IMG/VR virus record: IMGVR_UViG_3300030000_000014
DNA from: a virus
DNA length: 52,366 nucleotides
Strand: one strand, 5' to 3'
Of this stretch, positions 789 to 52,366 are shown in pieces; within the stretch, counting starts at the first letter, position 1; every line of letters starts with the position of its first letter. A model generated the notes under the pieces. That model worked only from the letters and a program-made list of their open reading frames with translations. It made no database searches and was not told where the DNA came from. Made by a program: the position numbers and the translations under genes.

Positions 789-803
789 TAAAACAGTAGC
801 AGT

Positions 804-1715
804 ATGGCAGACGAAAACAAAGTCCCTGTTCGCAAAGTGGACATTCTCAAAAAAACGTTGGGTACGGATAGTATCAACGAACAATTCAAAAACGCATTAG
901 GAGCAAACAGCAATGCGTTTGTAGCAAGTATTATCGACCTGTACACAGGTGATCCTCAATTGCAGACATGCGACCCGAACCTAGTAGTTGCACAAGCATT
1001 GAAAGCAGCAGTTCTGAAACTCCCAATCAACAAGGCATTAGGCTTTGCTTTCATTGTCGTTTTCAATAACTCAGTGAAAACAGAAAACGGTTGGGTGAAA
1101 GTCCCAACACCAACGTTTGTTCCCGGCTACAAAGGCTACATTCAGTTAGCTATGAGAACTGGCCAGTATCGCACAATGAATACCGATGTGGTTTACGAAG
1201 GAGAGCTTCAAAAAGTCAAAAAATTGTCAGGTGAAATCAACTTCGATGGTGTCAAAACTTCTGACAAAATTATTGGGTATTTCGCTTATTTCGAGTTGTT
1301 GAATGGCTTTGAAAAAACGCTCTACATCGATGTTGAAAAAATGTCTAAACACGCTAAACGTTACGCTGCTTCGTTGAAAAATAACAAGGATGTAACGGTT
1401 GAAACGTTGAAAATTCTTGCCAACTCAGAACAGTCAGGTGATAAGGTTGGTTGGCTTGGAAATTTCACAGACATGGCCTTAAAAACATGCTTGCGAAACC
1501 TACTAGCTAAGTGGGGCTACTTATCAGTTGAAATGCAAAGCGTACTTACTTCTGACAACGAAGATTACGACAGCACGGATGACCGTAACAAAGCAATCAA
1601 TGACATTCGACCTAATAACTTGAATATCGAGGATACAGACTTCACAGACGAAACTACTGCAGCGACTACCGAAAGTGAAACTCCAACACCATCAGGAGAT
1701 GGACCAGGTTATTGA
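804..1715 (+). CDS. recT: RecT-family single-strand annealing recombinase
   Basis: 303 aa. Typical RecT core (NLVVAQALKAAVLKLPIN, PGYKGYIQLAMRTGQY) with an acidic C-terminal tail. Confidence 0.85.
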   Translation: MADENKVPVRKVDILKKTLGTDSINEQFKNALGANSNAFVASIIDLYTGDPQLQTCDPNLVVAQALKAAVLKLPINKALGFAFIVVFNNSVKTENGWVKVPTPTFVPGYKGYIQLAMRTGQYRTMNTDVVYEGELQKVKKLSGEINFDGVKTSDKIIGYFAYFELLNGFEKTLYIDVEKMSKHAKRYAASLKNNKDVTVETLKILANSEQSGDKVGWLGNFTDMALKTCLRNLLAKWGYLSVEMQSVLTSDNEDYDSTDDRNKAINDIRPNNLNIEDTDFTDETTAATTESETPTPSGDGPGY

Positions 1716-4117: not shown

Positions 4118-4178
4118 AAAGGGAAACGTAATGCAATCACAAAAATTTAATTCTTTTTCGTGGGATTATTTCAAAAAT

Positions 4179-4212
4179 GTGATTGCATTACACTCACTTT
4201 TATATATCTTTA
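4179..4212 (+). promoter_or_regulatory. Palindrome plus -7 box cassette, copy A
   Basis: GTGATTGCATTACACTCAC (4179-4197), then 7 nt, then TATCTTTA (4205-4212). Flanked by an A-run upstream and a T-run downstream. Confidence 0.6.
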
Positions 4213-4324
4213 CATCCTCAATCAATAGGAGTAGCAGCCTAGATAAAAATTTTACGACCCCTTTTTTCCTATTCCGACCTGCTACTCGGAAGTTTGGAAA
4301 ATTGGGGTTTCGTTTTATACACAA

Positions 4325-4777
4325 ATGAAGACACTATATTTCAAAAAAGAGAACGGAGAAATTAAGGAAGAAGAACAGCTATTCAAGCAATTGAAGCAGT
4401 CATTCCTTAGTCTTAAAAATGGTGATTATGAGATAGTTCATAAGCTATTCAAGAAGAACCGTTCTAACGATCAAAATGCTTTAATGTGGTTGTGGTTCAC
4501 ATGCTTAGAAGACGAAACAGGACAAGACAAGCAAGACATTCACGATTATTATTGCAAGCTATTCTTAAGGCGTGAAGTAGTAATCAACAACAAGCGTGAA
4601 GTAGTAGTTTCCGGCACAAAAAATCTGAAAACTGATGTAATGGCTAACTTCCTCACTAAAGTACAAGCAGATGCAGCAAGTGAGTTTGGTTGTCAGTTAC
4701 CTACACGTGAAGACCTGCATTTCGAGGAATTCAGGAGACAATACGAACGGTTTAATTCTCATAACGATGGCAGATAA
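4325..4777 (+). CDS. ninB: NinB/Orf-like recombination mediator
   Basis: RSNDQNALMWLWFTCLEDE resembles lambda Orf RSLDQNRKLWACLGDVS. Similar length (150 aa). Confidence 0.5.
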   Translation: MKTLYFKKENGEIKEEEQLFKQLKQSFLSLKNGDYEIVHKLFKKNRSNDQNALMWLWFTCLEDETGQDKQDIHDYYCKLFLRREVVINNKREVVVSGTKNLKTDVMANFLTKVQADAASEFGCQLPTREDLHFEEFRRQYERFNSHNDGR

Positions 4778-5591: not shown

Positions 5592-6159
5592 AAAGTTCAA
5601 AGAGCAGTTAGGTACAATTACTCAGTACCTGGAGCGATTCAACCCAACGTCTGTACAAGATGGATTGCTTAGAGCTAGAGCCGGATTTGTAGAATGCAAG
5701 TCATACGATTTACCAACCTTGGAAATGTCGGCACAGATTTACGGAGAAAAGGCCATTGTCGTATGGATCAAGATTCAACTTGAAAACCTCAATGAATACT
5801 GTGGAGTAAAGGAAAAAATGTCACTAGAACAACTTAGCGAAGTTTCGAAAATAATCTTTTACACCTATCCACAATTGAACATTGCTGAAATAGCTTTTTT
5901 CATTTTGAAATTCAAATCAGGCTATTTTGGACAGTTCTATGGCTGTGTTGATCCATTGAAAATTTCTTCCGCATTCTGCCAATTTATGATGGATAGAATG
6001 GATGCTTTAAACGCTGCACAGCGAGATAGTAAACGTCAAGAGATAGAATGGAGCGTACAAAACGATATGGCTCAAAAGTTACTGAAAGAAAGAATTATTC
6101 GGAAACGAAAAAAAATAATGTCAATAAAAAAAATCAGAATCAAACGAATTAAAAAGTAG
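5506..6159 (+). CDS. Hypothetical protein (start uncertain: 5506 or 5725)
   Basis: ORF track. Overlaps the upstream gene by 86 nt if it starts at 5506. Basic C-terminus. Confidence 0.5.
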   Translation: MELNRKEIAQVTGKVNCLQKLPKLSPQIEKFKEQLGTITQYLERFNPTSVQDGLLRARAGFVECKSYDLPTLEMSAQIYGEKAIVVWIKIQLENLNEYCGVKEKMSLEQLSEVSKIIFYTYPQLNIAEIAFFILKFKSGYFGQFYGCVDPLKISSAFCQFMMDRMDALNAAQRDSKRQEIEWSVQNDMAQKLLKERIIRKRKKIMSIKKIRIKRIKK

Positions 6160-6163
6160 CAGT

Positions 6164-6733
6164 ATGGACGAAAACAAAAAAAATGAGTTTTTGATTTTCA
6201 CAAAGAAATTTGATACACTCGAAGATGTCCTTAAGGACAAAGAGTTTCAAACGTTTCTATCCAGTGAAATGGATAGTGTGAAGAAAGGCAGAATGGTAGA
6301 ACCACCTGCAGGATTCAGGTACAAACGAGACGGATATGATCAGTTAAAAGAAAATGGTCGTTTCAGAGTTGAATACATTATCAGTCAGTACTCATTGATT
6401 GAACAAAAGAAATGCGAACTGCCAGGTTCGATCAGAAAATTTATTGAGGGTCTTGTGATCAGTGCAACTGTAAAAATGCGAGACTTCTATTCTATCAGAG
6501 TCACCGAAGGATTGATATTTACAGGAAAGAATTTCACAGGTCGTGTTGAAATCCTAGCATTCGATTTCCCTAACAAAATACTGAAAGTGGAGTGTACAAC
6601 CAAAACCAACGAACAGTTCAACACATGGCCTGAGGATTGGGATTTACAGCACACCATTTGGGGCTTTGAAAGCGGTGAATACTTCGCTGCAACATTTGAA
6701 AATTATCCACCAACAAAAATTCAAGCAGTATGA
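6164..6733 (+). CDS. Hypothetical protein
   Basis: ORF track. Preceded by the AGTAGCAGTATG start context. Confidence 0.55.
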   Translation: MDENKKNEFLIFTKKFDTLEDVLKDKEFQTFLSSEMDSVKKGRMVEPPAGFRYKRDGYDQLKENGRFRVEYIISQYSLIEQKKCELPGSIRKFIEGLVISATVKMRDFYSIRVTEGLIFTGKNFTGRVEILAFDFPNKILKVECTTKTNEQFNTWPEDWDLQHTIWGFESGEYFAATFENYPPTKIQAV

Positions 6734-7378: not shown

Positions 7379-7666
7379 ATGAAAGACTTAAAAATGTTTC
7401 AAATTGAAGCGATAGATGAAATGTTCTGCATTATCGCAACTGACTCACAACACGCAAAAGAGATCCTCTTCAAAGAAGAAGATTCAATCCAACCCGATGA
7501 AATCATTGATACTAATGAATTGTCGGAAGAAGAAATGAAAGAACGCACTATTCTTGCAAATGTAGACATGGAATTGCCTGAAATGAACTTGTTTGACTAT
7601 TTCAGAGAATACAAAGGAGAAGGTGGACCCGGTGAATTAGTTTGTTCAACGCTTTACGTAGATTGA
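7379..7666 (+). CDS. Hypothetical acidic protein
   Basis: ATG at 7379 inside ORF 7343-7666. Confidence 0.45.
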   Translation: MKDLKMFQIEAIDEMFCIIATDSQHAKEILFKEEDSIQPDEIIDTNELSEEEMKERTILANVDMELPEMNLFDYFREYKGEGGPGELVCSTLYVD

Positions 7667-10000: not shown

Positions 10001-10119
10001 CATCACAATTCAATAATTAAGGCAAAAGCTCACAAGCGTGTGAATTTTTGAAAGAAAGCACTCCACACATTGCACCATTTCTTTCAAAGCCTTAGTTGTT
10101 GAAACAAAACAGTAGCAGA

Positions 10120-10551
10120 ATGACAAAAGTAAAACTTTACACCGGTTACTTCGGTAATTTCAGAGCATTGCAAAACAACAATGTTTTAATGATTAGTATA
10201 AGTCGTTATCCTCCAAAAAATTGGACTGGACCTGTAATGTTGGAGTTAGCTCCTTTATCTTACATGTTGAAGTTTGGAGCCGAAGAATACGACAAGTTAT
10301 TTGCTGAAAGAGTTCTAGGGGTTACAACTCCAAAAAACATTATTAAGCAGATTGAATGGATTGCCGAAAAAACAAATAGTACTAAAATTGCTCTTTGCTG
10401 TTTTGAAAAAGAACAAAAAGAATGTCACCGTTACAATGTGGCTCTTTGGCTTCAAAAAGCAGGTTTCGAGATTGAAGAATTCAAAGTTGAAACCAAAACC
10501 GAAATTGAAAAGCCAAAAGTTATTGATGCACAGACTTCACTTTTTGATTGA
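10120..10551 (+). CDS. DUF488-like protein
   Basis: ATG at 10120 behind CAGTAGCAGA. LAPS-like segment and CCFEKEQKECHRYNVALWL resemble the DUF488 C-terminal signature. Confidence 0.45.
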   Translation: MTKVKLYTGYFGNFRALQNNNVLMISISRYPPKNWTGPVMLELAPLSYMLKFGAEEYDKLFAERVLGVTTPKNIIKQIEWIAEKTNSTKIALCCFEKEQKECHRYNVALWLQKAGFEIEEFKVETKTEIEKPKVIDAQTSLFD

Positions 10552-19418: not shown

Positions 19419-19449
19419 GTAAAAGCAATCTGAAAATGGTTGCTTTTAC
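19419..19449 (+). terminator. Intrinsic terminator after the head morphogenesis gene
   Basis: GTAAAAGCAA-11 nt-TTGCTTTTAC (perfect 10 bp), followed by a T-rich tract. Confidence 0.6.
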
Positions 19450-19519: not shown

Positions 19520-19563
19520 ATGAGCGTATTGCACACACATTTCAATTATTATTGTTAGCTTTA
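19520..19563 (+). promoter_or_regulatory. Diverged seventh copy of the palindrome plus -7 box cassette
   Basis: aTGAGCGTATTGCACACAC resembles the left half of copies D and E. TAGCTTTA lies at 19556-19563 with longer spacing. Confidence 0.4.
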
Positions 19564-19598
19564 CACATTCTTTTAAACAAACAAATAAACACAAGACA

Positions 19599-19850
19599 AT
19601 GTCAGTAGCAACATTACCCCCAACAAAGACCGACAAGGCAGTTGAATTATTCAACCTTGGCAACATAGTAGCAGCTTTCGGAATTTTCAAAACGTTCAGA
19701 ATTGGTTTTTCAGCAGACGAACGTAGAACACTTCAAATAGCACATGAATCAATGACCGGGAAAGAGTCGTTCTACAAGTCATTACAGATTGATACAGACG
19801 CTATCAAGACACAAGCCTTACAACTTATCAAATCAAAGTATAATCTTTAA
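19599..19850 (+). CDS. Hypothetical small protein
   Basis: ORF track. First gene of the accessory island. Confidence 0.45.
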   Translation: MSVATLPPTKTDKAVELFNLGNIVAAFGIFKTFRIGFSADERRTLQIAHESMTGKESFYKSLQIDTDAIKTQALQLIKSKYNL

Positions 19851-19863
19851 ACAGTAGCAGAAA

Positions 19864-20139
19864 ATGGAAACAATTAATTGGAATGCCCCAAAAAGTGAGC
19901 ACGAACTTATTGGAAAAATCGTAAAACGTGCAGTAAAAGAATTAGATGAAATAGTAGTCATGGACTTGAACATGGATGTGACTGCAACTCATTGTAATGG
20001 AACTCCTTTGGATTTGGAAAAGCTATTAGCCTTTGATGAATTCAACTTTTCACATGATATTTATGGTATCATGGATCATATCGACAGGACCAATGGAAAA
20101 CTAACTCGTGGTTTTTTACCTCGTTGTTCAAAACACTGA
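19864..20139 (+). CDS. Hypothetical protein (conserved-looking DL.MD..A.H.NG.PLDL..LL..D.FNF.HD..GI motif)
   Basis: ORF track. CAGTAGCAGAAAATG start context. Confidence 0.5.
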   Translation: METINWNAPKSEHELIGKIVKRAVKELDEIVVMDLNMDVTATHCNGTPLDLEKLLAFDEFNFSHDIYGIMDHIDRTNGKLTRGFLPRCSKH

Positions 20140-20143
20140 TGCC

Positions 20144-20347
20144 ATGAAAGTAAATGAATTAGTTCAAATACTGCAAGAATTAAATCAGGAAGCTGAAATT
20201 GTTATTGAACACGATTTAAAATACAATAGAGTGAATAGTAAAATTGACACCAGTAAGCCAATAAAAGAGATAGAAATCAAGCATGTAAAGTCAAATGAGT
20301 TCTTTACTTCTGAATATGCACTTAGCACAACAACAAATTTTAAATAG
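20144..20347 (+). CDS. Hypothetical small protein
   Basis: ATG at 20144 inside ORF 20108-20347. Confidence 0.4.
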   Translation: MKVNELVQILQELNQEAEIVIEHDLKYNRVNSKIDTSKPIKEIEIKHVKSNEFFTSEYALSTTTNFK

Positions 20348-20354
20348 TAGCAGT

Positions 20355-20549
20355 ATGAAAAAGCAAAAATTAAATGCCTATCAAATGAACGGTTACAACA
20401 GCCGTGAAGATTATTTGAGGTCTATTTCGGAAGAGAATGGAATTGAATACTCTGTAGTTTTACAACTGGCTCAAATGCTCGGAGCAGAAGAAGACTTCGA
20501 TGGTCTTGTTGTAACGATTGAAGAAAATAGTTTAATCTTTTCAGAATAA
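20355..20549 (+). CDS. Hypothetical small protein
   Basis: ATG at 20355 behind TAGTAGCAGT. Confidence 0.45.
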   Translation: MKKQKLNAYQMNGYNSREDYLRSISEENGIEYSVVLQLAQMLGAEEDFDGLVVTIEENSLIFSE

Positions 20550-20555
20550 AGGAAT

Positions 20556-20846
20556 ATGGCACACACAAACGGAGATTGGCAACGAGTATGGAACACAAAG
20601 AATAGTCCTGAAACTTGCATTATCAAAGCAATAGCAAAAGATGGTTCAAAAAAATCTATTTGTAGAATCATAACAAATGAAAATGATTTTGAAAATGCAA
20701 AGTTAATAGTTGCAGCACCGGTAATGCTAGAAGCATTGAAAAGATTTCAAGAAGAATGGGTTGTAAATGGCAATCCTGCACAAAGAGCAAATAATTATTC
20801 AATTGAGAAACAGATAAACGCAGTAATCAAAAGAGCAACAGAATGA
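20556..20846 (+). CDS. Hypothetical protein (NAKLIVAAPVMLEALK motif)
   Basis: ORF track. Confidence 0.5.
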   Translation: MAHTNGDWQRVWNTKNSPETCIIKAIAKDGSKKSICRIITNENDFENAKLIVAAPVMLEALKRFQEEWVVNGNPAQRANNYSIEKQINAVIKRATE

Positions 20847-21292
20847 AAACATACAAAGGCACTCTTCCAGAAATAGAGTTGAAGTACAAAAAAGGCGATA
20901 CGCTGAGATGTAAGATTGCTTCATCCAAAGATGCAGCAGAGTTATTCATGAAATTCTATGACCAGGACGTTTTCGAATTGACAGAAAGTGTAATTGTCAT
21001 TTACTTGAACTCAGCAAATAATACCATTGGTTGGATGAAGCATTCAACAGGAGCTACAAATCAAACCGTTATTGATCCAAAACTTATAGTCGGTGCAGCA
21101 TTAAAAATGGGAGCTTCCGGAATAATTATTTCGCACAATCACCCAAGCGGAAACGCATTCCCTAGCACTCATGATAAAGCTGTTACAAAACAGTTGAAAG
21201 ACGGATGTAAGTTATTCAACATTACATTACTGGATCATATCATTGTTACCGAAGATAGTTATTACAGTTTTGGAGATGAAGGAGAAATGTAA
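20843..21292 (+). CDS. radC: RadC-like JAB/MPN domain protein
   Basis: GIIISHNHPSGNAFPSTHDKAVTKQL...LDHIIV (JAMM motif HxHPSG...D). Confidence 0.85.
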   Translation: MKTYKGTLPEIELKYKKGDTLRCKIASSKDAAELFMKFYDQDVFELTESVIVIYLNSANNTIGWMKHSTGATNQTVIDPKLIVGAALKMGASGIIISHNHPSGNAFPSTHDKAVTKQLKDGCKLFNITLLDHIIVTEDSYYSFGDEGEM

Positions 21293-21310
21293 ATTTAAAA
21301 TAAGATAGTT

Positions 21311-21625
21311 ATGAAACGTATTGTAAAAAACAAAATCGAAAAGAAGCCTGTATCAAAAGACGAATTGATGGATCAGATAGTTCCTAAGCGTGGAGTTGCC
21401 AGTGCAGCAGAAAAACTAAGAGAGTTCAAAGAAAGTAATCAAAAACCAACGGTTCCAGTTTCCTCACTAAAGTATGGTTTTAAAAAAGCTTTGACATTGT
21501 TTGTTTCTCCTGATTTGACAAGAGAACAGATTATCGAGAAGTTCGAAAAACGTTTCAATGCTTCCGACATAAACATGTACAATGTGAAACGAGAACTAAG
21601 AGTAAAAAGAACAGTTAGAACATGA
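21311..21625 (+). CDS. Hypothetical basic protein
   Basis: ORF track. Confidence 0.45.
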   Translation: MKRIVKNKIEKKPVSKDELMDQIVPKRGVASAAEKLREFKESNQKPTVPVSSLKYGFKKALTLFVSPDLTREQIIEKFEKRFNASDINMYNVKRELRVKRTVRT

Positions 21626-22073
21626 CACATGAAGAATTAGAATTGCTTGAAATAGCAAAAGAAATAATCAAAAGCAATAGTCACTTGAATGCTATGCTAA
21701 GTGGGAGTTTAATGTTAGCTTATCGTGGAATTGATAAGCGAAGAGAAGCTACTGATATTGATATTTTAGTAAGTAGTGTTACTGGTGCATTAATTATTCC
21801 TAATGGATTTAAACAAAAGGAAATTGAAACAGAAGAAGAGTATGAAGAATCAGAGTATTGCAGATTTATTCTAACAATGATGGTATAAAATTAGATTTCT
21901 TCCAAACTGCCGAAATTCCTACTATTGTCGATGGCATTTCATGCGGATCAGTAAGAACGATGCTTGATGCAAAGTATGAGTATTGGAAAGATAATGGTAA
22001 CGAAAAACACCGTTTAGATTTGGAATTTTTGAATTATAAATTCCCTATTGAAACAGATGATTTACCATGGTAA
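21622..22073 (+). pseudogene. Minimal pol-beta-type nucleotidyltransferase split over two frames (21622-21888 and 21858-22073)
   Basis: SGSLMLAYRGIDKRREATDIDIL (GS-x14-DxD) is in frame 1. The continuation (IKLDFFQ..., possible third carboxylate) is only open in the -1 frame from 21846 and has only a TTG start. Confidence 0.45.
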
Positions 22074-22113
22074 TTGACCCAATGTAATTTTTTTTATATT
22101 TTTTCTTCAAAAA

Positions 22114-22146
22114 GTGAGCGTGTTACGCTCACTTTTTGTATTTTTG
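22114..22146 (+). promoter_or_regulatory. Palindrome plus -7 box cassette, copy C (upstream of the capsid/tail genes)
   Basis: GTGAGCGT-GTT-ACGCTCAC (perfect 8-bp arms, 22114-22132), TTTTTG, then TATTTTTG (22139-22146), which matches TAnnTTTG. Confidence 0.65.
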
Positions 22147-23465: not shown

Positions 23466-24566
23466 ATGGAAAAACCATTATTTGAGCTAGATCAACCCGG
23501 CATGAATGCCGAGGTGAACTCGTATAAACCGGGTACTGGACTTGTTTGGTCCATCTTGTTCCCGTTGAAGTACACTCCTAAATTTGACCTGAAAGGAATT
23601 GAGGGCAATGAAGGAATTCCTATTTCTGCCGACCGTGTTGCATTCAATGTGAAAGCTCCTTTGAAAACACGAAAGACTGTTGGTTCTTGGAGCGGAAAGC
23701 TTGGTAAAATCTCTATGTCGAAAGAGAAAGACGAAGTTCAAATCAACGAATATCGCGACCTTAAAACAATCTCTGCTGCAAATACACAAGACAAAGCTAC
23801 TGCAAGGTACTTGGTTGATATGGTGTATGATGACATCAAGGCTTGTTCTGACGGTATCGACTACAAAGTTGAAATTGATGCTTTGCGTATCGGCTCAGCC
23901 GGAAAGCAAACTTTCCCTGCATCCATTGAGGGTGACATGGCAACTACCGATGAAATCAACTTCAATATTGCTGCTGAAAACTTCGTAGGAGTTACAAAAG
24001 CTTGGAGTGATATTACTGCTGATGGAATTGGCGATGTTGTGAAAATGCAGAAAGAAATCACTAAAAAAGGTTTGAAAAAACCAATGTTTGCCATTTTGGA
24101 AACTTCCAAATTCGAGCAACTTTTGGCTCAAACTGCTACTGCTAAAAAAGTGGCTTCTATCTTGATGAACGTAAGTGGTTTGACTTCAACAGAAGTTCTT
24201 TCTGTTGATAACGTAAATGCTTACATGCGCTCAAAAGGGTTTCCTCAGTTCCTTGTTTTGGATAGTTATGCAACTATCGAAGACAAAGCGGGAAAACAAA
24301 CTACAATCAAACCTTGGAATGAAAATGTAGTTACTCTTTCGCCTGTTCCACAATTGGGTTGGACTTATTACAAGCCTGTTCCAGTTATCGAAGAAACTGC
24401 TGCTTTGCAAGCTCAGGGAGCTTTTGCAAAAACAACTGTTTACTCGCAAGTTAACCCTATGTTGGAGGTTACAATGGCAGAAGCCTATGTACAACCTGCA
24501 TTGATCAACCGTGCTTCGTTAGTGTTCATCAACACTACCAACGTAGCTTGGAACGGAGGATTATAA
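23466..24566 (+). CDS. Major capsid protein (gpE-like)
   Basis: 366 aa. Position after the scaffold and decoration genes. Resembles the lambda E-type capsid family in length and N-terminal pattern. Confidence 0.65.
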   Translation: MEKPLFELDQPGMNAEVNSYKPGTGLVWSILFPLKYTPKFDLKGIEGNEGIPISADRVAFNVKAPLKTRKTVGSWSGKLGKISMSKEKDEVQINEYRDLKTISAANTQDKATARYLVDMVYDDIKACSDGIDYKVEIDALRIGSAGKQTFPASIEGDMATTDEINFNIAAENFVGVTKAWSDITADGIGDVVKMQKEITKKGLKKPMFAILETSKFEQLLAQTATAKKVASILMNVSGLTSTEVLSVDNVNAYMRSKGFPQFLVLDSYATIEDKAGKQTTIKPWNENVVTLSPVPQLGWTYYKPVPVIEETAALQAQGAFAKTTVYSQVNPMLEVTMAEAYVQPALINRASLVFINTTNVAWNGGL

Positions 24567-40605: not shown

Positions 40606-40694
40606 CTTCCCGAACTTTTGGCAATTATTCCGTCTCGCGCGCGGATCATAAGAGTAGAGTAAAGTAGAGAAGAATAGAGTAGAGTAGAAAAGAG
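40606..40694 (+). repeat. TTCCCGAA box plus GAGTA iteron tract, copy 3
   Basis: CTTCCCGAACTTTTGGC is the reverse complement of 5162-5178. It is followed by CGCGCGCG, then GAGTAGAGTAAAGTAGAGAAGAATAGAGTAGAGTAGA. Confidence 0.75.
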
Positions 40695-40746
40695 ATTTTT
40701 CCGAAAAAATATACTGCTGTTTTATACTGTTTAAAATTTGTTTGAT

Positions 40747-40782
40747 AAGCCGTTAGCCTGTGAAGGTCAACGGCTTTTTTTT
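40747..40782 (+). terminator. Intrinsic terminator after the lysis cassette
   Basis: AAGCCGTT-14 nt-AACGGCTT followed by a T-run. Confidence 0.65.
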
Positions 40783-40852
40783 GTTAGTAAACGTCAACAA
40801 AAAGAAGAATACAGTTAATCAAACTTAAAACAAAGAAACATTCTCGCAAAAT

Positions 40853-40885: not shown

Positions 40886-40933
40886 CATATTATTAATTCA
40901 ATATAAAACTAACAGTTTAAAAACAGTATAAAA

Positions 40934-41290
40934 ATGAAAGCAATAATCGTAAAAGACAATGATTTTAAGACAATTGGTTTTGAGGTTACCTCTAAAGCAG
41001 AAAATGGATTAAGAGGTGAAACAATACTATTTAGTTGGGGAATATCCTCAACACTAAAAAGCAACTTTCAAAAGGAAGTCAATGCAAATCATTGGTTAGT
41101 TCAAATTTTCGATTTAGTTAAGCTTAAAGGAGTTCTTCAAGAACAAGAAGAAGGTGTTCGTGAGTTCTTTAGTGTTGCAGGTAAGAATAAATTAATCAAA
41201 GACGGACAAGGTGTTGATGTCAATGATTATAAGCAAAGAGTTGAAATTACAAAAATGAAAATTGAAAATATAGTTAAGAATATAATTTAA
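40934..41290 (+). CDS. Hypothetical protein
   Basis: ORF track. Confidence 0.5.
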   Translation: MKAIIVKDNDFKTIGFEVTSKAENGLRGETILFSWGISSTLKSNFQKEVNANHWLVQIFDLVKLKGVLQEQEEGVREFFSVAGKNKLIKDGQGVDVNDYKQRVEITKMKIENIVKNII

Positions 41291-41301
41291 AAAGTAGCAG
41301 T

Positions 41302-42213
41302 ATGGAAACAAATTATTTATCACATTTACAGGAATCAGCTTACCGGGCATTTTATTGGACTTCATTCAGTCCTGATGTTAGAGGTAAACAGTGTATTGAC
41401 GAACATGAATCACAGCTGAGTGATGACATTAAATCTATCCCAAGTTCGGAGCATGAAAGATACATCGCAAAATATGTAGAACTATTCTCTAAATGGTTGA
41501 GTGCTCATTCAAGGTGTGCAAGTTCAGCAATAACAGGTGGATCAGGGTTCAATGTTAGAAGAGCTGAGAAAGCAAACAACAGTGAGCGTAACGCTTATAA
41601 AAACTTTGACGAGTGGAGAACCAATGCAAAGAAATCTATTGAAAAACGTATCGAGCAAAATAAGCCAGAAGCACAAAAGAAATCAGAAGCATGGCAGCGA
41701 TTAGAAAAAGATATTTTGCATTCTGCAGCAGTAATTCACGGTATAAACAAAGGGCTTGAAAGGGGCTGTAGTAAAGCTCTTTTTGTCAGTTCAATTTATC
41801 AAAAGACTGAAACATTCGCTAAGAAAGGGGACTTTGAAACTGTTCAGCTAGCAATTAATTGTATTCGTAACTTCAACGAAACAATGTCTGTAGTAATTAC
41901 CGAAAGACACAAGTTTTTCAAGTTGGCTGAAAAGGCCGAAGCAAAGAAAGAAAGTATTGAGGAACGTTCACAAATGGAAAATCAAGAGCTTTTGATAATT
42001 GGCGGTAAAGTTATCTACAATTACGAAATTGACAGATTGCAACTTGAATTTGACGAAAAGCCCTCCTATAGTATTATTCAAGAATTAAAAAGTCATGCGT
42101 TCAAATGGGCTCCGTCCACCGGAGTTTGGCAAAGACAATTGACTGGGAATGCGATTTATTCGACTAAGCTATTTTTGAAGAGTAATAATTTATTTATATC
42201 TAAATCAGAATGA
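41302..42213 (+). CDS. DUF3560-like protein
   Basis: C-terminal LQLEFDEKPSYSIIQELKSHAFKWAPSTGVWQRQLT resembles the DUF3560 signature. AAGTAGCAGTATG start context. Confidence 0.4.
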   Translation: METNYLSHLQESAYRAFYWTSFSPDVRGKQCIDEHESQLSDDIKSIPSSEHERYIAKYVELFSKWLSAHSRCASSAITGGSGFNVRRAEKANNSERNAYKNFDEWRTNAKKSIEKRIEQNKPEAQKKSEAWQRLEKDILHSAAVIHGINKGLERGCSKALFVSSIYQKTETFAKKGDFETVQLAINCIRNFNETMSVVITERHKFFKLAEKAEAKKESIEERSQMENQELLIIGGKVIYNYEIDRLQLEFDEKPSYSIIQELKSHAFKWAPSTGVWQRQLTGNAIYSTKLFLKSNNLFISKSE

Positions 42214-42217
42214 TATT

Positions 42218-44032
42218 ATGAATGAAGATATAAAATTGATTTACGTTGATTTATTTTGTGGAGCAGGTGGAACTTCCACAGGAGTTGAAAGTGCAAAAGT
42301 AAGAAAAGAACAATGTGCCAAGGTAATCGCTTGTGTCAATCACGATAAAAATGCGATTGCTTCGCATGAAGAAAACCACCCTGATGCGCTTCACTTCACC
42401 GAGGATATAAGAACACTCGACCTATCAAAGCTTATTGCACATGTTCAGTTTATGCGCATTATGTACCCAAATGCAAAGCTTGTTCTTTGGGCTTCGTTAG
42501 AGTGCACAAACTTCAGTAAGGCAAAAGGTGGACAGTCGAGAGATGCAGACAGTAGAACGCTTGCAGAACATTTATTCAGGTACATAGAAGCTCTTAATCC
42601 TGATTACGTTCATATTGAGAACGTAGAAGAATTTATGAGTTGGGGTGAGTTGGATGATAATGGAAAACCAGTTAGTAGAAATAATGGAAAAGATTATATC
42701 CGATGGATGAAGCAAGTTTGCTCTTATGGATATGATTCAGATTTCAGAATTTTGAACTCAGCAGATTTTGGAGCATATACTTCACGCAAGCGATTGTTTA
42801 TTCAATTCGCAAAATACGGTTTACCTATCAACTGGCCTGAACCTACACATTGCAAAGGTGGATCGGTTGGAATGTTTGATTTCAAAAAATGGAAGCCAGT
42901 AAAAGAAGTACTCGACTTCACGGATGAAGGTGTGTCAATTTTCACACGAAAGAAAGATTTATCCGAAAAAACGCTAGAACGGATTCATGCGGGACTGATC
43001 AAGTTTGTTGCAGGTGGAAAAGACAAATGGATTTTGAAATACAATTCCACTAATGGGAAAACAGGGAAACATAATCCACCATCTGTAGATGATCCTTGTC
43101 CAGTAGTTAGTACACAAGGAAGATTGGGAATTGTAAAGTGTGATTTTCTATCAATATACAATTCAGGTAATCCGGATCATAGAAATACTTCAATAAATGA
43201 TCCTTGTGGAGTAGTTACAACGAATAACCGTTTTGCAAAAGTTCAATGTGATTTTTTATCAGCTTATTATGGAAATGGTGACAATGTTAGTTCTGTGAAT
43301 AATCCAAGTCCAACCGTAACGACAAAAGACAGATTAGCTTTAGTTTCTCCACGATTCATTGATCAACAATTTGGACAGTCAAAGCCTGCATCAATTGAAA
43401 AACCATGCGGTGCATTAACTGCAAATCCAAAGTACAACCTGGTAACATGTAATCGATTTATTGTAAATCAGTATTCAGGAGGTGGTCAACATTCAGACGT
43501 AAATAATCCGTGTCCTGCTGTTTTATCAACTCCAAAACAAAATCTAGTTACCTTGAAACCGTGGATAATGAATACCAACTTTAGCAATATTGGCAGCTCG
43601 ATTGATGAACCATCCAAAGTAATTACAGCTAATCGTAAATGGCATTACCTGATGAACCCGCAATTTGGTAACCAGGTTCGCTCGGTTGATGATCCATGTT
43701 TCACTTTGATTGCTAGAATGGACAAAATGCCCCCTTATTTCATAGTTGCAGAAGATGGTAAAATGCAAATTCGAATTGAGAAAGATGATTCTGAATTTAC
43801 CGTAAAAATCAAAGAATTCATGTCGATTTACGGAATAGTTGACATTAAAATGCGAATGCTGAAAATTCCTGAACTCAAAATGATAATGGGATTCCCAAAG
43901 GATTACAAGCTTATCGGAACGCAGGCAGAGCAAAAGAAATATATAGGTAATGCAGTAGAGGTAACGATGGCAAGAGTCCTTTGTGAAGCAGTAGCAATTA
44001 AATTACATCAACAAACAAAAATAGCAGTATGA
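42218..44032 (+). CDS. DNA (cytosine-5)-methyltransferase with an expanded, internally repeated variable region
   Basis: Motif I DLFCGAGGTS. Motif IV variant SLECTNFS. Motif VI HIENV. Motif VIII TSRKRLF. Motif X GNAV. About 7 repeats of S(V/I)(D/N)xP(C/S)xx(V/L)(T/S)T lie between VIII and IX. Confidence 0.8.
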   Translation: MNEDIKLIYVDLFCGAGGTSTGVESAKVRKEQCAKVIACVNHDKNAIASHEENHPDALHFTEDIRTLDLSKLIAHVQFMRIMYPNAKLVLWASLECTNFSKAKGGQSRDADSRTLAEHLFRYIEALNPDYVHIENVEEFMSWGELDDNGKPVSRNNGKDYIRWMKQVCSYGYDSDFRILNSADFGAYTSRKRLFIQFAKYGLPINWPEPTHCKGGSVGMFDFKKWKPVKEVLDFTDEGVSIFTRKKDLSEKTLERIHAGLIKFVAGGKDKWILKYNSTNGKTGKHNPPSVDDPCPVVSTQGRLGIVKCDFLSIYNSGNPDHRNTSINDPCGVVTTNNRFAKVQCDFLSAYYGNGDNVSSVNNPSPTVTTKDRLALVSPRFIDQQFGQSKPASIEKPCGALTANPKYNLVTCNRFIVNQYSGGGQHSDVNNPCPAVLSTPKQNLVTLKPWIMNTNFSNIGSSIDEPSKVITANRKWHYLMNPQFGNQVRSVDDPCFTLIARMDKMPPYFIVAEDGKMQIRIEKDDSEFTVKIKEFMSIYGIVDIKMRMLKIPELKMIMGFPKDYKLIGTQAEQKKYIGNAVEVTMARVLCEAVAIKLHQQTKIAV

Positions 44033-44223
44033 AAGCAAAACAGAAACTTGAAGATTACCGTGTTACGGTACAACTACAAATTGTAGAAATTGAGGTAAAA
44101 GCTACATCAAAGACAGACGCAAAGAAAAAGGCACTTAGTCGCCTTTCAAGAAAAAACCCAGTTAAATTAATCCATACAGGATATCCATCAAACAGAAAAG
44201 AAATTTATATTGATAAATTATGA
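44029..44223 (+). CDS. Hypothetical small basic protein
   Basis: ORF track. Start overlaps the MTase stop. Confidence 0.45.
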   Translation: MKAKQKLEDYRVTVQLQIVEIEVKATSKTDAKKKALSRLSRKNPVKLIHTGYPSNRKEIYIDKL

Positions 44224-45266: not shown

Positions 45267-45296
45267 AATAGCTAGGATTTCAACAGATGGACATTT

Positions 45297-45526
45297 GGTG
45301 GACAAAAACACACCATTAAAAAAAGCTAATCGCTCGTTATGAGCCGATTAGCTTTTTGTTTTGTGACCCAGGAGGGGACTGATGGTTGAAATAGCATGAT
45401 TTTGGATAGTATTTCAAAATGTTCAAGAACCTCTGATTCACTGTGCAAAGATAATAAAAATGTTTAAATAGGTTCATGTTGGTTCAAGTTAATTTACATC
45501 AGGTGGACAATTCGTGGACAAAAACA
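45297..45526 (+). repeat. Candidate attP arm-type sites
   Basis: GGTGGACAAAAACA (45297-45310), GGTGGACAA (45502-45510), CGTGGACAAAAACA (45513-45526). Also tandem GGTTCAWGTT x2 (45471-45490) and TGTTCAAGAA (45420-45429). Confidence 0.5.
45320..45362 (+). terminator. Intrinsic terminator
   Basis: AGCTAATCG-12 nt-CGATTAGCT, with an A-run before and a TTTTTGTTTTG tract after. Confidence 0.65.
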
Positions 45527-45554
45527 TTATCTTTGCATTAATAAACAAAGTAGC

Positions 45555-46877
45555 ATGGCAACAATAACATTAAGTCTATCAAAGAAATGTAATGAAATTG
45601 GAAAATCTGAAATAATGTTGAGATTTTCCATCAGTAAAGTTCAAAGATACAGAATAAAATCAAATTTATTCGTGTCGGCCAGTCGTTGGTCAAAGAAGAA
45701 TGAAATATCTATTCCTAAGATTGAAACAGAAGAACGCCAACAGCTCGTTTCATTAGCTTCTAGGTTCGATAATTTGAAAGTACATATATTCAAATGTTTT
45801 GAAAATTCAGACAAATCACAAGTTACTAAAGAATGGTTATTTGAATGTGTTGATAGATTTCATTTCCCTGAAAAATATATTGAAGTGATCCATGAGCCAA
45901 CGTTCTTTGATGTCGTGGACGAATTTCTATCAAAACGTAAATTATCTGCCGGAAGACTTCGTTCGATAAATGTTGTATTCCGATCATTGAAGCGTTACCA
46001 ATTGTATAAGCAAAAAACGAATGAATTGTTCATTTTAGATTTGAAAAATATAGATGAAAATATACTTGCTGACATTGAAAAATTTTTCAAGGATGAACCG
46101 ACTGTTTTTGCCAAGTACCCGGACATTTACAAAATTGTAAAAGAGTCAAGAAATCCTGAGCCAAGAGGACAGAACACGGTGAATGATATGTTGGTTAAGC
46201 TAAGAACGTTTTTTATTTGGTGCACCGATAATGAGAAGATTGATTCAAATCCGTTTAAGAAGTTCCCAGTATCAGAGTGTATTTATGGAACTCCGTACTA
46301 TATTAAGATAAGCGAAAGAAATCAGCTTTATGCAAAGAACATGAAAAAGTTACCATCGCTAGCGGTACAAAGAGATATTTTTGTGTTGCAGTGTCTTATT
46401 GGTTGCCGTGTTGGTGATTATTACAAAATGAAGATGTCAAACATAATGGATGGTGCCATTGAGTATATTGCCGGAAAAACAAAAGATGGTAATCCGATTA
46501 CTGTACGTGTTCCTCTCAATTCCATTGCGCTTGAAATTATCGAGCGTTATAAGGATGCTAATAGAGAATCACTAATGCCATTTATCAGCGAACAGAAATA
46601 CAATGAAGCTATCAAAGAAATGTTCACGTTTGCAAAACTGAATAGAATGGTAACGGTTCTTAATCCTACCACAAGGGAAGAGGAAAAAAAACCGTTAGAT
46701 AAAATAGCATCCTCGCACCTGGCACGAAGATCATTTATAGGAAATTTGTACAAGCAAGTCAAGGACCCAAATTTAGTAGGATCATTATCCGGCCATAAAG
46801 AAGGAAGCAAAGCATTTGCCCGTTACCGAGACATTGACGAAGAAATCAAGACTGACTTGGTGAATCTACTTCTGTAG
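45555..46877 (+). CDS. int: Tyrosine site-specific integrase (Bacteroidota phage/CTn type)
   Basis: LIGCRVGD (Arg), SHLARRSF (HxxR), LSGHKE (His), FARY (Tyr). N-terminal arm-binding and SAM-like domains. A TATCTTTG -7 box lies at 45528-45535. Confidence 0.85.
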   Translation: MATITLSLSKKCNEIGKSEIMLRFSISKVQRYRIKSNLFVSASRWSKKNEISIPKIETEERQQLVSLASRFDNLKVHIFKCFENSDKSQVTKEWLFECVDRFHFPEKYIEVIHEPTFFDVVDEFLSKRKLSAGRLRSINVVFRSLKRYQLYKQKTNELFILDLKNIDENILADIEKFFKDEPTVFAKYPDIYKIVKESRNPEPRGQNTVNDMLVKLRTFFIWCTDNEKIDSNPFKKFPVSECIYGTPYYIKISERNQLYAKNMKKLPSLAVQRDIFVLQCLIGCRVGDYYKMKMSNIMDGAIEYIAGKTKDGNPITVRVPLNSIALEIIERYKDANRESLMPFISEQKYNEAIKEMFTFAKLNRMVTVLNPTTREEEKKPLDKIASSHLARRSFIGNLYKQVKDPNLVGSLSGHKEGSKAFARYRDIDEEIKTDLVNLLL

Positions 46878-49767: not shown

Positions 49768-50148
49768 ATGAAAACAAAAGATATTGAAGAAATTATAAGT
49801 TTATGTGAACCATTAGCTTTGATAATGTCTGAATTAAGTAAGTCAGATGAAAATTCGCTAACACAAATCGCTAAAAGTGCAATCAAAATAAAACCCGTAT
49901 TGGAAGATTTTGTAAATGTAAATCAAGGAATATCTCAAAAAAAATATCTAAAATTAGAATCTAGCAAGCAAGATTTTTGCGATAATGTCGATGGGTTGGT
50001 TGACTCAATTGATGATTTACAGGAATTAATAGAAGATGAAGGTTTTGATGCATGTAATGACATTATGAATTTAGAGGACATTCGAACTTGGCTATTTAGA
50101 ATAATGGATTATAAAAATGTAAAAAACAAATCAGCCGAAAAGGCATAA
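49768..50148 (+). CDS. Hypothetical acidic protein
   Basis: ORF track. Confidence 0.45.
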   Translation: MKTKDIEEIISLCEPLALIMSELSKSDENSLTQIAKSAIKIKPVLEDFVNVNQGISQKKYLKLESSKQDFCDNVDGLVDSIDDLQELIEDEGFDACNDIMNLEDIRTWLFRIMDYKNVKNKSAEKA

Positions 50149-50158
50149 ATACAGCAGT

Positions 50159-52090
50159 ATGAAAATAACACTAAAAAAGCTGACACTCCGAGGATTTAGA
50201 GGGGTCGTTTCAGAAAGTTTTGAGTTTATCGGTCGTGAAACTTTCATTCATGGTCGAAACAAAGCAGGAAAAACATCGCTATACGATGCTTTCCTATGGG
50301 TGAATTTCGGAAAGGACCACTTGGATCGTTCCGATTATCAATTGAAAACTCGTGATTTACTTGGTAACACGAAACCAAAAACAGAATGCGAAGTTGAAGA
50401 AGTTCTTGATGTAGATGGTAAGATTACTACACTCAGACGAGTGTACGGTGAAAATTGGGTAAAACCAAAAGGAGAAGCCGAAGAAGTATTCAAAGGAAAT
50501 ACAACGACCTATTATATCAATGATGTGGACGTACCAAAATCTGAGTACGATGCTTTTGTATTAGGTCTTTGTGGTGAAAAAGTTTTCAAGTCAATTACCA
50601 ACCCGCATTATTTCCCAAGTCTTAGTAAGGACGAACAGAGAGCTTTATTATTCAGCATGGCCGGAGAAATAACCAACGAATCGGTTGCAGCAACTAACAA
50701 AGCATTTCAAGAGTTATTGACTGAAATTACTGGTGTTTCGTTTGACTCTTTCCGTAAGGAATTGGCAGCCAAAAAACGCAGGATAAAAGAGGAGTTAGCC
50801 GGTATTGAACCGAGAATTGACGAGTTGAAAAGAACGATGCCCGAAATTCCCGATCTTGATGCAATCAACAAAGAATTGGAAGAAAAGAAAGGTAAAATTG
50901 AACTTGTCGAAATGTCAATTTCAGACATTGCTAAACAGTCCGAAAGCGTTCAGAAAGAACGGTTAGAATGGCAGGGTGAAATCAACAAGTTGGAGCTTGA
51001 AAACCAACAACTAGGCTTTGAAGAAACTCAAAAGCAATCGCAAGCAATTCAGGAAGTAAAACGTAAGATTGATGTCGTAAAATCAAGTAACCTTGAAGTA
51101 GAAAACAAAGAAGCTCAACGGAAACAGAAAGTAGTTTCTTTGAATAAAGAAAAGGACGAAAAGCTTGAAATTATTGCACAGTATCGCAAAGAATATCAGA
51201 ATATAAATGCTGAAACTCTAACATTTCCCGAAGGAGCTTTTGAATGTCCTACCTGCAAACGATTACTTGAACCGTCAGACATTGATGCAAAGCAAGCTGA
51301 ATTGGTAGCCAATTTCAACAACGAAAAGGCAAGACGGATTGAAGAAAATAAGAAGAAAGGTCTTGCGATTAAAACTCGATTGGATGAAATTGAGAAAGAA
51401 CTTGAACAGCTTGTTGTACCTGTTGAAGCTGAAAAGTTCACAGGCACAAAGTTGGATATTCTAAACGAAGAACTTGTAAAAGTATCACAGCCGATACCGT
51501 TAACCGAAAAGCAAAACGAAAACCAAGGAAAAATAAACTGGTTCCGTTCCAAGCTCAATGAAGAAGTAAATTTGCAAGGAAATCAACGCTTCATTGAAGA
51601 AAAGAACCAACTGCAAGGCGAGATTGATAAATTGAAAGAACGACTTGCATTGAAAGACGTTGTTGAAAATACGAATACCCGGATCAAGCAACTAGAAGGA
51701 CAATTCAAAACACTCAACCAGGAGTTGGCCCATCTTGAAAGAAAAGAATTTACGCTGAAAGAATTTGAATTTGCAAAGAATACTGAATACGAAGTTCGTA
51801 TCAATCAAATGTTCAAATATGTAAAATTCAAGTTATTTGCTCAGCAAGTAGATGGTCAGATTATCCCAACTTGTGAAGCTATGATTGATGGAGTTCTTTA
51901 CTCTACTTTGAACAATGCAGATCAATACAAATGCGGTTTGGATATTATCAATACCATTTCAGCCTATAACGATAAGTACGCACCTATATGGCTTGACAAC
52001 CGTGAGGGAGTAACTGAAATCCCTGAAATGACAGCACAAGTTATCAATTTGGTTGTAAATCCTGAGAAACAAAAACTTACTATCGTTTAG
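50159..52090 (+). CDS. Rad50/SbcC-like AAA ATPase with coiled coil and CxxC zinc hook
   Basis: N-terminal LRGFRG...HGRNKAGKTSLYDAFLWVNFG (Walker A). Long coiled coil with ECPTCKR at its centre. C-terminal IWLDNREG (Walker B/D-loop). Confidence 0.7.
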   Translation: MKITLKKLTLRGFRGVVSESFEFIGRETFIHGRNKAGKTSLYDAFLWVNFGKDHLDRSDYQLKTRDLLGNTKPKTECEVEEVLDVDGKITTLRRVYGENWVKPKGEAEEVFKGNTTTYYINDVDVPKSEYDAFVLGLCGEKVFKSITNPHYFPSLSKDEQRALLFSMAGEITNESVAATNKAFQELLTEITGVSFDSFRKELAAKKRRIKEELAGIEPRIDELKRTMPEIPDLDAINKELEEKKGKIELVEMSISDIAKQSESVQKERLEWQGEINKLELENQQLGFEETQKQSQAIQEVKRKIDVVKSSNLEVENKEAQRKQKVVSLNKEKDEKLEIIAQYRKEYQNINAETLTFPEGAFECPTCKRLLEPSDIDAKQAELVANFNNEKARRIEENKKKGLAIKTRLDEIEKELEQLVVPVEAEKFTGTKLDILNEELVKVSQPIPLTEKQNENQGKINWFRSKLNEEVNLQGNQRFIEEKNQLQGEIDKLKERLALKDVVENTNTRIKQLEGQFKTLNQELAHLERKEFTLKEFEFAKNTEYEVRINQMFKYVKFKLFAQQVDGQIIPTCEAMIDGVLYSTLNNADQYKCGLDIINTISAYNDKYAPIWLDNREGVTEIPEMTAQVINLVVNPEKQKLTIV

Positions 52091-52108: not shown

Positions 52109-52142
52109 GTGAGTGTATAACACTCACTTATTGCTAGATTTA
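52109..52142 (+). promoter_or_regulatory. Palindrome plus -7 box cassette, copy F
   Basis: GTGAGTGT-ATA-ACACTCAC (perfect 8-bp arms), then TAGATTTA at 52135-52142. Confidence 0.6.
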
Positions 52143-52178
52143 CATATTATTTAAAACAAACAAATTTATAGTAGCAGT

Positions 52179-52366
52179 ATGGAAAATTACAAGACAAAAG
52201 AAGAAGTTGAAAAACTCTTAGGTGTAAAAATTGAAATTAAAGACGGAAAATTTCATTATGGCGGTTCTCTCGACCTACGTGGTACGCAAATCAGTGTCCT
52301 ACCCGATAACTTGACAGTTGGCGGTTCTCTCGACCTACGTGGTACGCAAATCAGTGTCCTACCCGA
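52179..52366 (+). CDS. 5' part of the LRR-like tandem-repeat protein (continues at 1-788)
   Basis: TAGTAGCAGTATG start. MENYKTKEEVEKLLGVKIEIKDGKFHY, then the repeat units in the same frame as position 3 of the window. Confidence 0.8.
   Translation, partial: MENYKTKEEVEKLLGVKIEIKDGKFHYGGSLDLRGTQISVLPDNLTVGGSLDLRGTQISVLP
52270..52366 (+). repeat. 1.6 further copies of the 60-bp repeat, identical to 1-97
   Basis: Direct comparison of the last 97 nt with the first 97 nt. Confidence 0.95.

Follow-up and report, generated by a model that had tools for sequence, protein, structure and literature searches.

The window analysed here is a 52,366 nucleotide stretch of virus DNA (IMG/VR record IMGVR_UViG_3300030000_000014), in which a short word, hereafter called the tag, lies directly 5′ of the start codon of about ten genes. 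It is the circular genome of a temperate, siphovirus-type phage: metagenomic contigs of 52 kb encode the same RecT, and the gene order in these contigs spans the window ends, which overlap each other by 97 nt. Almost all genes are on the + strand. The early operon extends from ∼48.4 kb over the junction to ∼11 kb (SbcC-like, RecT, replication proteins, SSB and NinG), and is followed by the packaging, head and tail genes (11–37.7 kb), the lysis genes (38.5–40.6 kb), a variable module with a primase-like and a DNA methylase gene (40.9–45.3 kb), and the lysogeny switch, made of the integrase gene (45555) and of divergent regulators (46.8–48.3 kb). Because the nearest relatives are prophages in metagenome-assembled genomes (MAGs) of Paludibacter (order Bacteroidales), we consider Paludibacter to be the host. 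No similar isolated phage was found among the GenBank phages, either by near-identity or by distant BLAST search with the window.

An initial annotation had listed ten start codons abutted by a near-identical string. We checked these sites one by one, and every one was present as described. The exact 12-mer AGTAGCAGTATG occurs five times, at 795, 6155, 20346, 41293 and 52170, leading to the ATG at 804, 6164, 20355, 41302 and 52179 respectively, and two further copies in the window have one mismatch. The tag is preceded by a run of A, the full consensus being AAAA[AC]AGTAGCAGTATG. Exact copies stand, on the + strand as all other tags described here, before the RecT gene (804–1715; AAAACAGTAGCAGTATG, 790–806), a gene for a 189-aa protein (6164–6733; TAAAAAGTAGCAGTATG, 6150–6166), a gene for a 64-aa protein (20355–20549; TAAATAGTAGCAGTATG, 20341–20357), the primase-like gene (41302–42213; again TAAAAAGTAGCAGTATG, 41288–41304) and a repeat-protein gene that starts at 52179 and crosses the circular junction (TTTATAGTAGCAGTATG, 52165–52181, with the promoter-like TAGATTTACA upstream at 52135). 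Closely related strings precede the DUF488-like gene (10120–10551; AAAACAGTAGCAGAATG, 10106–10122, with AGTAGCAGAATG at 10111), where the tag is kept before the L124 and L378 orthologues, the DUF6874 gene (19864–20139; TAAACAGTAGCAGAAAATG, 19848–19866, with AGTAGCAGAAAATG at 19853) and a second 64-aa gene (44029–44223; ACAAAAATAGCAGTATG, 44015–44031, with AATAGCAGTATG at 44020). The integrase gene (45555–46877) has a short tag (ATAAACAAAGTAGCATG, 45541–45557, with AGTAGCATG before 45555), and the SbcC-like gene (50159–52090) a variant one (ATAAATACAGCAGTATG, 50145–50161, with ACAGCAGTATG before 50159). The sites at 19864 and 20355 belong to an accessory cassette (19556–22138) inserted in the structural region, after a terminator (19419–19449) and with its own promoter-like box. 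Three sites can be added to the initial list: a degenerate tag before a 142-aa gene (AAAACAGTATCATTATG, 2874–2890, with AGTATCATTATG before 2888), a half-tag before a 118-aa gene (AAAAACAGTATAAAAATG, 40918–40936, with AACAGTATAAAAATG before 40934) and a weak relative, AAGCAGTATG, before 6730.

Enrichment was measured with the heptamer GTAGCAG. It has 14 matches in the window, 12 of them on the + strand, for an expectation of 2.75±1.9 on both strands, and none of 100 shuffled sequences reached 14. Copies crowd at gene starts: 7 of the 12 on the + strand lie within 12 nt 5′ of a gene start, a zone that makes up ∼1.7% of the strand (binomial p∼3×10−10). The remaining five are the 5′ box of a leader described below (4231) and four intragenic copies (4953, 19668, 39119 and 49254). 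The tagged set consists of the genes for RecT, the 189-aa protein, the DUF488-like and DUF6874 proteins, the two 64-aa proteins, the primase-like protein, the integrase, the SbcC-like protein and the repeat protein. Capsid, tail and lysis genes had been reported to be devoid of the string; this holds at the listed sites, and the portal, head morphogenesis, major head, tape measure and endolysin genes, which we checked, are untagged. We conclude that the tag is real and highly non-random.

Several of the sites are informative as to the level at which the tag acts. The one at 44029 is wholly inside the coding sequence of the 604-aa DNA methylase (ATGA overlap), the one at 6164 contains the stop codon TAG of the upstream gene (6157–6159), and at 20355 the upstream stop codon TAG (20345–20347) overlaps the tag start. 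The integrase tag follows a canonical Bacteroidota −7 box, TATCTTTG (45528–45535), at a distance of ∼20 nt, and would therefore be within a short 5′ leader. Given these intragenic and stop-overlapping sites, the place after the −7 box, the 12:2 strand bias and the contact with the AUG, we conclude that the tag acts at the RNA level. A promoter role was rejected, since tags occur within coding sequence and downstream of a −7 box. Host-type Bacteroidota promoters have a TAnnTTTG box ∼5–8 nt upstream of the transcription start, and no such box is found in the tag. Nor is the tag a Shine-Dalgarno (SD) sequence, as the initial annotation had rightly stated. An SD has a purine-rich, GGAGG-like core 5–10 nt before the AUG that pairs with CCUCC at the 16S rRNA 3′ end, and AGUAGCAGU contains neither GGAG nor GAGG. 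Bacteroidia ribosomes are reported to sequester the anti-SD sequence (PMC7797042). A pairing with 16S rRNA was considered too and set aside, since the resemblances would be in the same sense and not complementary.

Positive start determinants in Flavobacterium johnsoniae, and in Bacteroidia, are A residues at −3, −6 and −11 to −14 (PMC6847099). The exact tag, as in AAAACAGTAGCAGTATG, has A at −3, −6, −9 and −11 to −14, and thus all of these positions. The initial annotation had rightly held that the string is more specific than an A-rich context. The tag is a specific word, confined to three related phages and with its G, T and C positions kept, which is not what a host-wide, base-unspecific start context would give; the exact copies nevertheless still fit the A preference (PMC6847099). 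Among orthologous genes the distance to the ATG varies from −3 to +2 nt and the flanks diverge, while AGTAGCA is retained. Integrase genes, for example, read AGTAGC-ATG in the window and AGTAGCAGTTT-ATG in L124, and the DUF488-like orthologues of the three phages read AGTAGCAGA-ATG, AGTAGCA-ATG and AAGTAGCA-ATG. As the spacing shifts while AGTAGCA stays, the A-3/A-6 register is not the conserved feature.

To delimit the distribution of the tag, genes were called in 59 prophage loci that were anchored on RecT and came from named genomes, as well as in the window, and IMG/VR loci were also examined. Among the named loci, GTAGCA adjoins start codons only in the window phage and in one Paludibacter prophage (L124/L125/L131, RecT 78% identical); a third carrier was found in IMG/VR (L336/L378). 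Other Paludibacter prophages (L132, L134, L135 and L126) have no tags. An exact-pattern scan of IMG/VR with AAMAGTAGCAGTATG gave 118 single hits, nearly all of them due to chance and off open reading frame (ORF) starts, so that the tag is not widespread. Judged from these sequences, it is lineage-specific and not host-wide.

A complement of the tag was found in a structured leader, R1 (4205–4327, + strand), which occupies part of the 207-nt gap between a 258-aa gene and the replication genes and leads into the replication operon. R1 starts with the promoter-like TATCTTTACA (4205), followed by a 5′ box, GAGTAGCAG (4229–4237), that is identical to the tag core. It continues with a three-tier hairpin (outer stem CCCC 4258–4261/GGGG 4304–4307, inner stem 4272–4277/4286–4291), and ends with a U-rich tract before the ATG at 4325. 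The hairpin is topped by an 8-nt apical loop, CCTGCTAC (4278–4285; CCUGCUAC as RNA), which is antisense to the tag. R1 folds far better than its shuffled versions (z=−5.95), and the + strand of the window has just two copies of CTGCTAC, one of them in the loop (4279–4285). With a covariance model the leader was detected in the window, L124, L378, L126 and L155, and just these five times in ∼2.1 Mb of related loci. Its consensus structure has 9 covarying pairs, and the loop sequence is apical and unpaired in the minimum free energy folds of all five leaders.

Each of the five phages also has a 5′ box of 7–9 nt perfectly complementary to its apical loop. Box and loop read GUAGCAG/CUGCUAC in the window, L124 and L378, CUGACAG/CUGUCAG in L126 and GUGGACG/CGUCCAC in L155. 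Three different sequences thus fill a complementary pair in five phages, which amounts to compensatory covariation for a box-loop interaction. The tagged phages are exactly the three with the GUAGCAG/CUGCUAC leader, whereas L126, whose RecT is 71% identical to that of the window and closer than that of L378, and L155 have other boxes and no tags. It is very unlikely that the 7-nt tag core equals the leader box by chance, and the tags amount to additional copies of a box whose known partner is the loop. An inverted repeat with 14 perfectly matched bp (GTAATGCAATCACA...TGTGATTGCATTAC, 4128–4191) lies just 5′ of the R1 promoter-like box and is followed by a U-rich tract; it is kept as a long hairpin in L124 and L126, and is possibly a terminator between the recombination and the replication genes.

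More distantly related prophages of gut Bacteroidales, hereafter the sister lineage, have a tag of their own. In prophages of Alistipes, Rikenellaceae, Bacteroides, Muribaculaceae, Mediterranea and Prevotellaceae, the word (A)AT[TC]CAACGCAA is found 0–9 nt before the ATG. The kinds of genes that bear it match those tagged in the window and include the genes for the integrase, the first early protein, the SbcC-like protein and RecT; TTCAACGCAA-ATG is the form seen at integrase, SbcC-like and RecT starts. An ORF start lay at most 12 nt downstream in 92 of the 162 unique + strand contexts of TCAACGCA. Between their lysis genes (amidase, holin and GH108) and the phage attachment site (attP) and integrase gene, these phages have a gene resembling that of a small RNA (sRNA), with a −7 box TAyCTTTG, a 5′ hairpin, an unpaired seed and an intrinsic terminator. 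At least 12 distinct variants were collected (L139:3355–3470, L147:4138–4255, L156:2795–2905 and L163:4323–4435, and others in L151, L222, L226, L228, L229, L232, L242, L245 and L246). The stems vary with pairing kept, and the unpaired seed, UUGCGUUGA(A) (UUGCGUUGAA), is invariant and the exact complement of the tag. Where the register of the tag differs, ATCAACGCAATT in L151 versus TTCAACGCAA in L139, the seed differs correspondingly. Rfam gave no match in the sister-lineage sRNA loci. By its sequence, the partner of the tag in the sister lineage is evidently an antisense sRNA. A third tag, (A)CCCCGAAACA-ATG (CCCGAAACA-ATG), was seen before 4–5 genes in L416 (1196, 2506, 6001, 9603 and 9927), L417 and L438; no complementary element was found for it within the 20 kb examined. 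With these further types in relatives, tags at the start codons of genes for integration, recombination and replication are seen to recur in this group of phages.

Syntenic with the sister-lineage sRNA, a non-coding stretch of the window, R2 (40710–40785, + strand), follows the lysis genes. It consists of TATACTGCTGTTTTATACTGTTT, with two seeds, TATACTGCTGT (40710–40720) and TTTTATACTGTTT (40720–40732), each antisense to one half of the tag, and then of a strong intrinsic terminator (40747–40783). R2 and the whole tag can form 9+7 bp (−16.6 kcal/mol), the next intergenic region reaching −12.7 when all intergenic regions were compared on both strands. The seed at 40720–40732 is complementary, without mismatch over 13 nt, to AAACAGTATAAAA at the start of the adjacent 118-aa gene, and L192, a close variant of the window phage, has an A-to-G change that retains this pairing as G.U. 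The complement in the SbcC-like start region is 11 nt long, with a G.U at the G of the AUG. In L190 and L191 the preceding lysis gene encodes a protein only 45–46% identical, yet the second half of R2 and the terminator are kept there, the stems covarying. Searches for further R2 homologues gave chance hits only (IMG/VR pattern scan), none (JGI metagenome scan with the lysis protein) or unrelated phages only (contexts of homologues of the 118-aa protein).

Other sequences resembling the tag or its complement were noted. Between the lysis genes and the R2 seeds, AGTAGAG and AATAGAG copies form an array with 10-bp and then 5-bp spacing (40651–40690). AGTAGAG resembles the tag core minus its C, and L192 has an identical array, which L190, L191 and L336 lack; a decoy, a protein platform or iterons are possibilities. 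When the full 12-mer was searched for in antisense, leaving the tag sites aside, the nearest copies were at 24129 (1 mismatch, capsid gene) and 31251 (2 mismatches). The former, CAAACTGCTACT (24129–24140), is in the major head protein gene, where it encodes Thr-Ala-Thr-Ala; it is an 11-nt complement of AGTAGCAGTTT and, at −18.3 kcal/mol, the strongest complement of the tag on the + strand by duplex energy. It may be there by chance; if it were conserved in relatives, an abundant late mRNA could titrate the tagged start regions. Rfam gave no match in the window at the gathering score.

The initial annotation had suggested a translational operator for an RNA-binding protein or an sRNA, and this is the proposal that fits best, the RNA level of action, the complementary phage RNAs and the sister sRNA now being added to it. 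The tag would act in cis, as an RNA element placed where the translation of early, recombination, replication, integration and accessory genes is initiated, and its core, AGUAGCAG, would be the pairing site of a phage-encoded antisense RNA. Pairing at −9 to −2 would cover the region needed by the SD-less Bacteroidia ribosome, so that the tagged genes would be switched together at translation. The likeliest partner in the window phage would be the R1 apical loop, which may also pair in cis with the tag-identical 5′ box; R1 may exist in addition as a short attenuated RNA (∼100 nt, ending after GGGGUUUCGUUUU, about 4315). R2 would be a second, weaker candidate, i.e. an RNA made 3′ of the lysis genes. 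We infer the pairing in trans, repression rather than activation, and the timing in the life cycle. The properties expected of an antisense target are seen in that complements of the tag exist elsewhere on the transcribed strand, in the R1 loop and the R2 seeds, and that the one in R1 is unpaired in a conserved structure. Tag and putative regulator may also vary together: the GUAGCAG tag goes with the CUGCUAC loop in 3 of the 3 related phages, and UUCAACGCAA with a different sRNA seed in the sister lineage; L126 and L155 have other loops and are wholly untagged.

Several observations weigh against this interpretation. The R1 leader is present in L126 and L155 without any tags; it therefore has a function of its own, and the tags may be box copies that do not pair in trans. 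The duplex between loop and tag would have just 7–8 bp, and several L124 tags read AGTAACAG, with a central mismatch to the loop. The three carriers are mutually related, so the joint presence of tag and loop may partly reflect common descent. As for R2, its duplex energy ranks only about 9th genome-wide in a noisy RNAduplex ranking, and its seeds are absent from the tag-bearing L336 phage, which is why we placed it below R1. Finally, the exact copies also have the A at −3, −6 and −11 to −14 that Bacteroidia prefer in general (PMC6847099). Taking both sides together, we regard translational control at the RNA level, through an operator to which a phage antisense RNA binds, as the likeliest mechanism, at about even odds.

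An operator could also be read by a protein. In the manner of T4 RegA, an RNA-binding protein of the phage or of its host would recognize single-stranded AGUAGCAG beside the AUG and co-repress the tagged genes, and the leader box would be an extra binding site, masked or unmasked by the loop. The regulon has the make-up of that of RegA (recombination, replication and integration genes), a protein would cope better than an 8-bp duplex with the flexible spacing and with the G-to-A variants tolerated in L124, and the 10-bp-periodic AGTAGAG array could be a multi-site binding platform. We nevertheless find a protein reader unlikely: Pfam and PHROG scans of ∼20 of the roughly 75 window proteins gave no RNA-binding candidate, the covariation of leader box and loop points to base pairing and not to sequence-specific protein contact, and the sister lineage uses an sRNA. 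Quite unlikely, in our view, is an optimised start context for SD-blind Bacteroidia ribosomes, i.e. one good 17-mer (A at −3, −6, −9 and −11 to −14, no upstream AUG, little structure) copied among genes and requiring no trans factor. The most highly expressed genes, those for capsid and tail, are untagged and the integrase gene is tagged; non-A positions are conserved, the register varies among orthologues, further Paludibacter prophages do without the tag, and complementary RNAs exist in two lineages. Such a context would nonetheless account for the A at every positive F. johnsoniae position (PMC6847099) and for the GCA[AG]T right before the ATG that both tag types have in common, and the copies could stem from the leader box.

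The two DNA-level explanations that the initial annotation had offered fare less well. A site for a phage DNA-binding protein (replication initiator, regulator or methylase) is very improbable, although we retain it as an explanation to be weighed. Leader box and loop would then be an inverted-repeat binding site, such as an origin beside the replication genes. R1 is indeed directly upstream of the replication module and contains inverted repeats, its box and anti-box might just as well form a palindrome in DNA whose specificity was swapped from phage to phage, and the phage encodes a C5 methylase. But 12 of the 14 copies are on one strand and seven adjoin an ATG, neither of which a duplex-DNA site needs or explains, the tag is not palindromic, and the G.U-preserving change in L192 and the sister sRNA point to RNA. 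Least credible of all is a module-boundary sequence promoting recombinational shuffling, possibly via the phage RecT, as at lambdoid boundaries or T4 PeSLs. Gene boundaries were compared with those of L192, which has LPD29 and DUF4942 genes in place of the primase and methylase module and in which new genes are also tagged (7644: AAAAAGTAGCAGTATG). The breakpoints are at 41285 and 44219 in the window and at 7453 and 9842 in L192. At 41285 homology ends just before the window tag of the primase-like gene, and 44219 is exactly at an ATG, with a tag before it in L192. Both mosaic junctions are thus at a tag, and the phage encodes RecT and an SbcC-like nuclease. At each junction, however, only one partner is tagged, whereas a boundary sequence should be present in both, so the tag did not supply homology there. 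It is moreover merely 12–17 bp long, gene boundaries are where surviving junctions are expected anyway, and the strand bias, the fixed position at the ATG and the complementary RNAs would be left unexplained.

Some further features of these genomes concern transcription units, genome ends and integration. The promoter-like word TAnnTTTACA has 16 matches in the window for 3.8 expected, and six + strand copies (4205, 9993, 19556, 40878, 48380 and 52135) are intergenic and precede operons. But for an A where the Bacteroidota −7 box TAnnTTTG has its last G, the word is like that box, and it may mark phage transcription units. At the window ends (1–300 and 52270–52366), a 60-bp tandem repeat encodes a 20-aa repeat (LDLRGTQISVLPDNLTVGGS) in the tagged gene starting at 52179. 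The 97-nt overlap falls within this repeat, and the gene encodes 212 aa in contig L120 and ∼292 aa in the window, meaning that either the copy number varies or the assembly is uncertain. A likely attP was located in the window (45286–45308, 45366–45385 and 45502–45524) and in L124 (372–391 and 510–532), with a 20-bp core, gtgacccaggaggggactga, common to the window and to the prophage junction of a Paludibacter MAG. The TGGACA direct repeats on either side of this core probably serve the integrase as arm sites, and there is a bidirectional terminator at 45320–45360. In the sister lineage, an Alistipes/Rikenellaceae prophage is inserted at the 3′ end of a 461-aa host gene (...FCIGK; L140 3560–3580, L139 3564; core TGCATCGGAAA), which may resemble MnmE/TrmE, and L139 has a tandem remnant with a truncated integrase gene. 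The tRNA scan was negative.

Among known systems, the c4 antisense RNA of phages P1 and P7, which has target sites a2/b2 upstream of icd-ant (PMC12197685), is comparable in several respects. It is a phage-encoded antisense RNA that acts in trans through short complementary loops, pairs round the ribosome-binding region and blocks translation; it is co-transcribed with its target operon, as R1 would be, and its pairing sequences vary between related phages, giving heteroimmunity. It differs in that c4 has one operon with two sites, whereas here the site is common to ∼ten genes, spread over at least six transcription units, in a host that lacks SD-based initiation; neither sequence homology nor structural homology was found, and Rfam gave no match. 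GcvB, in enterobacteria, controls a seed-based multi-target sRNA regulon. The GibS and FopS sRNAs of Bacteroides pair near susC start codons (PMC11697453). In such regulons a conserved single-stranded seed pairs with a motif shared by many mRNAs at or beside the start codon, and FopS has a single-stranded 5′ seed and a terminator, as does the sister-lineage phage sRNA. These sRNAs are chromosomal and have host targets, whereas here regulator and regulon would both be phage-borne, and the target motif is far more uniform, the exact 12-mer occurring five times. The T4 protein RegA is a repressor with a loose recognition sequence. Its regulon is likewise one of early, replication and recombination genes controlled via a site that overlaps the AUG, but nothing RegA-like was seen among the window proteins scanned, and the evidence is here for base pairing. 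PeSLs are promoter-plus-stem-loop cassettes. They and the lambdoid boundaries share with the tag the placement of short repeats at gene boundaries of mosaic phage genomes; the tag is neither promoter nor stem-loop, and the L192 junctions are tagged in one partner. Lastly, the Kozak-like adenines of Bacteroidia (PMC6847099) recall the tag in the A at −3, −6 and −11 to −14 and in the lack of an SD, but they are a generic nucleotide preference, whereas the tag is a lineage-restricted word with conserved non-A positions and a shifting register. By analogy, the system appears closest in logic to P1 c4 and to the seed-based sRNA regulons, but it would extend to start regions across the phage genome, in a host that does without SD pairing.

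A literature search returned no account of tags of this kind or of an sRNA from a Bacteroidales phage. A 2025 review of phage sRNAs has no mention of Bacteroid*, and describes c4, sar, OOP and STnc6030 each as acting on a single transcript (PMC12197685). We tentatively propose, as a generalisation open to considerable doubt, that temperate phages of the SD-less Bacteroidales have lineage-specific start-codon 'address tags' which are read by a phage antisense RNA and form a genome-wide post-transcriptional switch. If so, there would be at least three tag types (GUAGCAG, UUCAACGCAA and CCCGAAACA), and in the window phage a pseudoknotted leader with a tag-mimicking 5′ box would read the tags through its apical loop, so that the translation of ∼ten genes would be coupled to the state of the replication-operon leader. 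The switch would cover integration, recombination and replication genes, and could double as an RNA-based immunity against related phages. Prophages that are common in the guts of humans and animals carry the sister sRNA, and one of them (L140) resides in Alistipes putredinis DSM 17216, which makes the proposal testable in a cultivable host. Pairs of tags and anti-tags could serve as orthogonal translational switches for the engineering of Bacteroides. Bacteroidota choose and control the genes to be translated without the aid of SD pairing. If the proposal is true, phages would possess an antisense control system on the scale of a regulon, and RNA-RNA pairing could supply the start-codon specificity that is otherwise missing in these bacteria.

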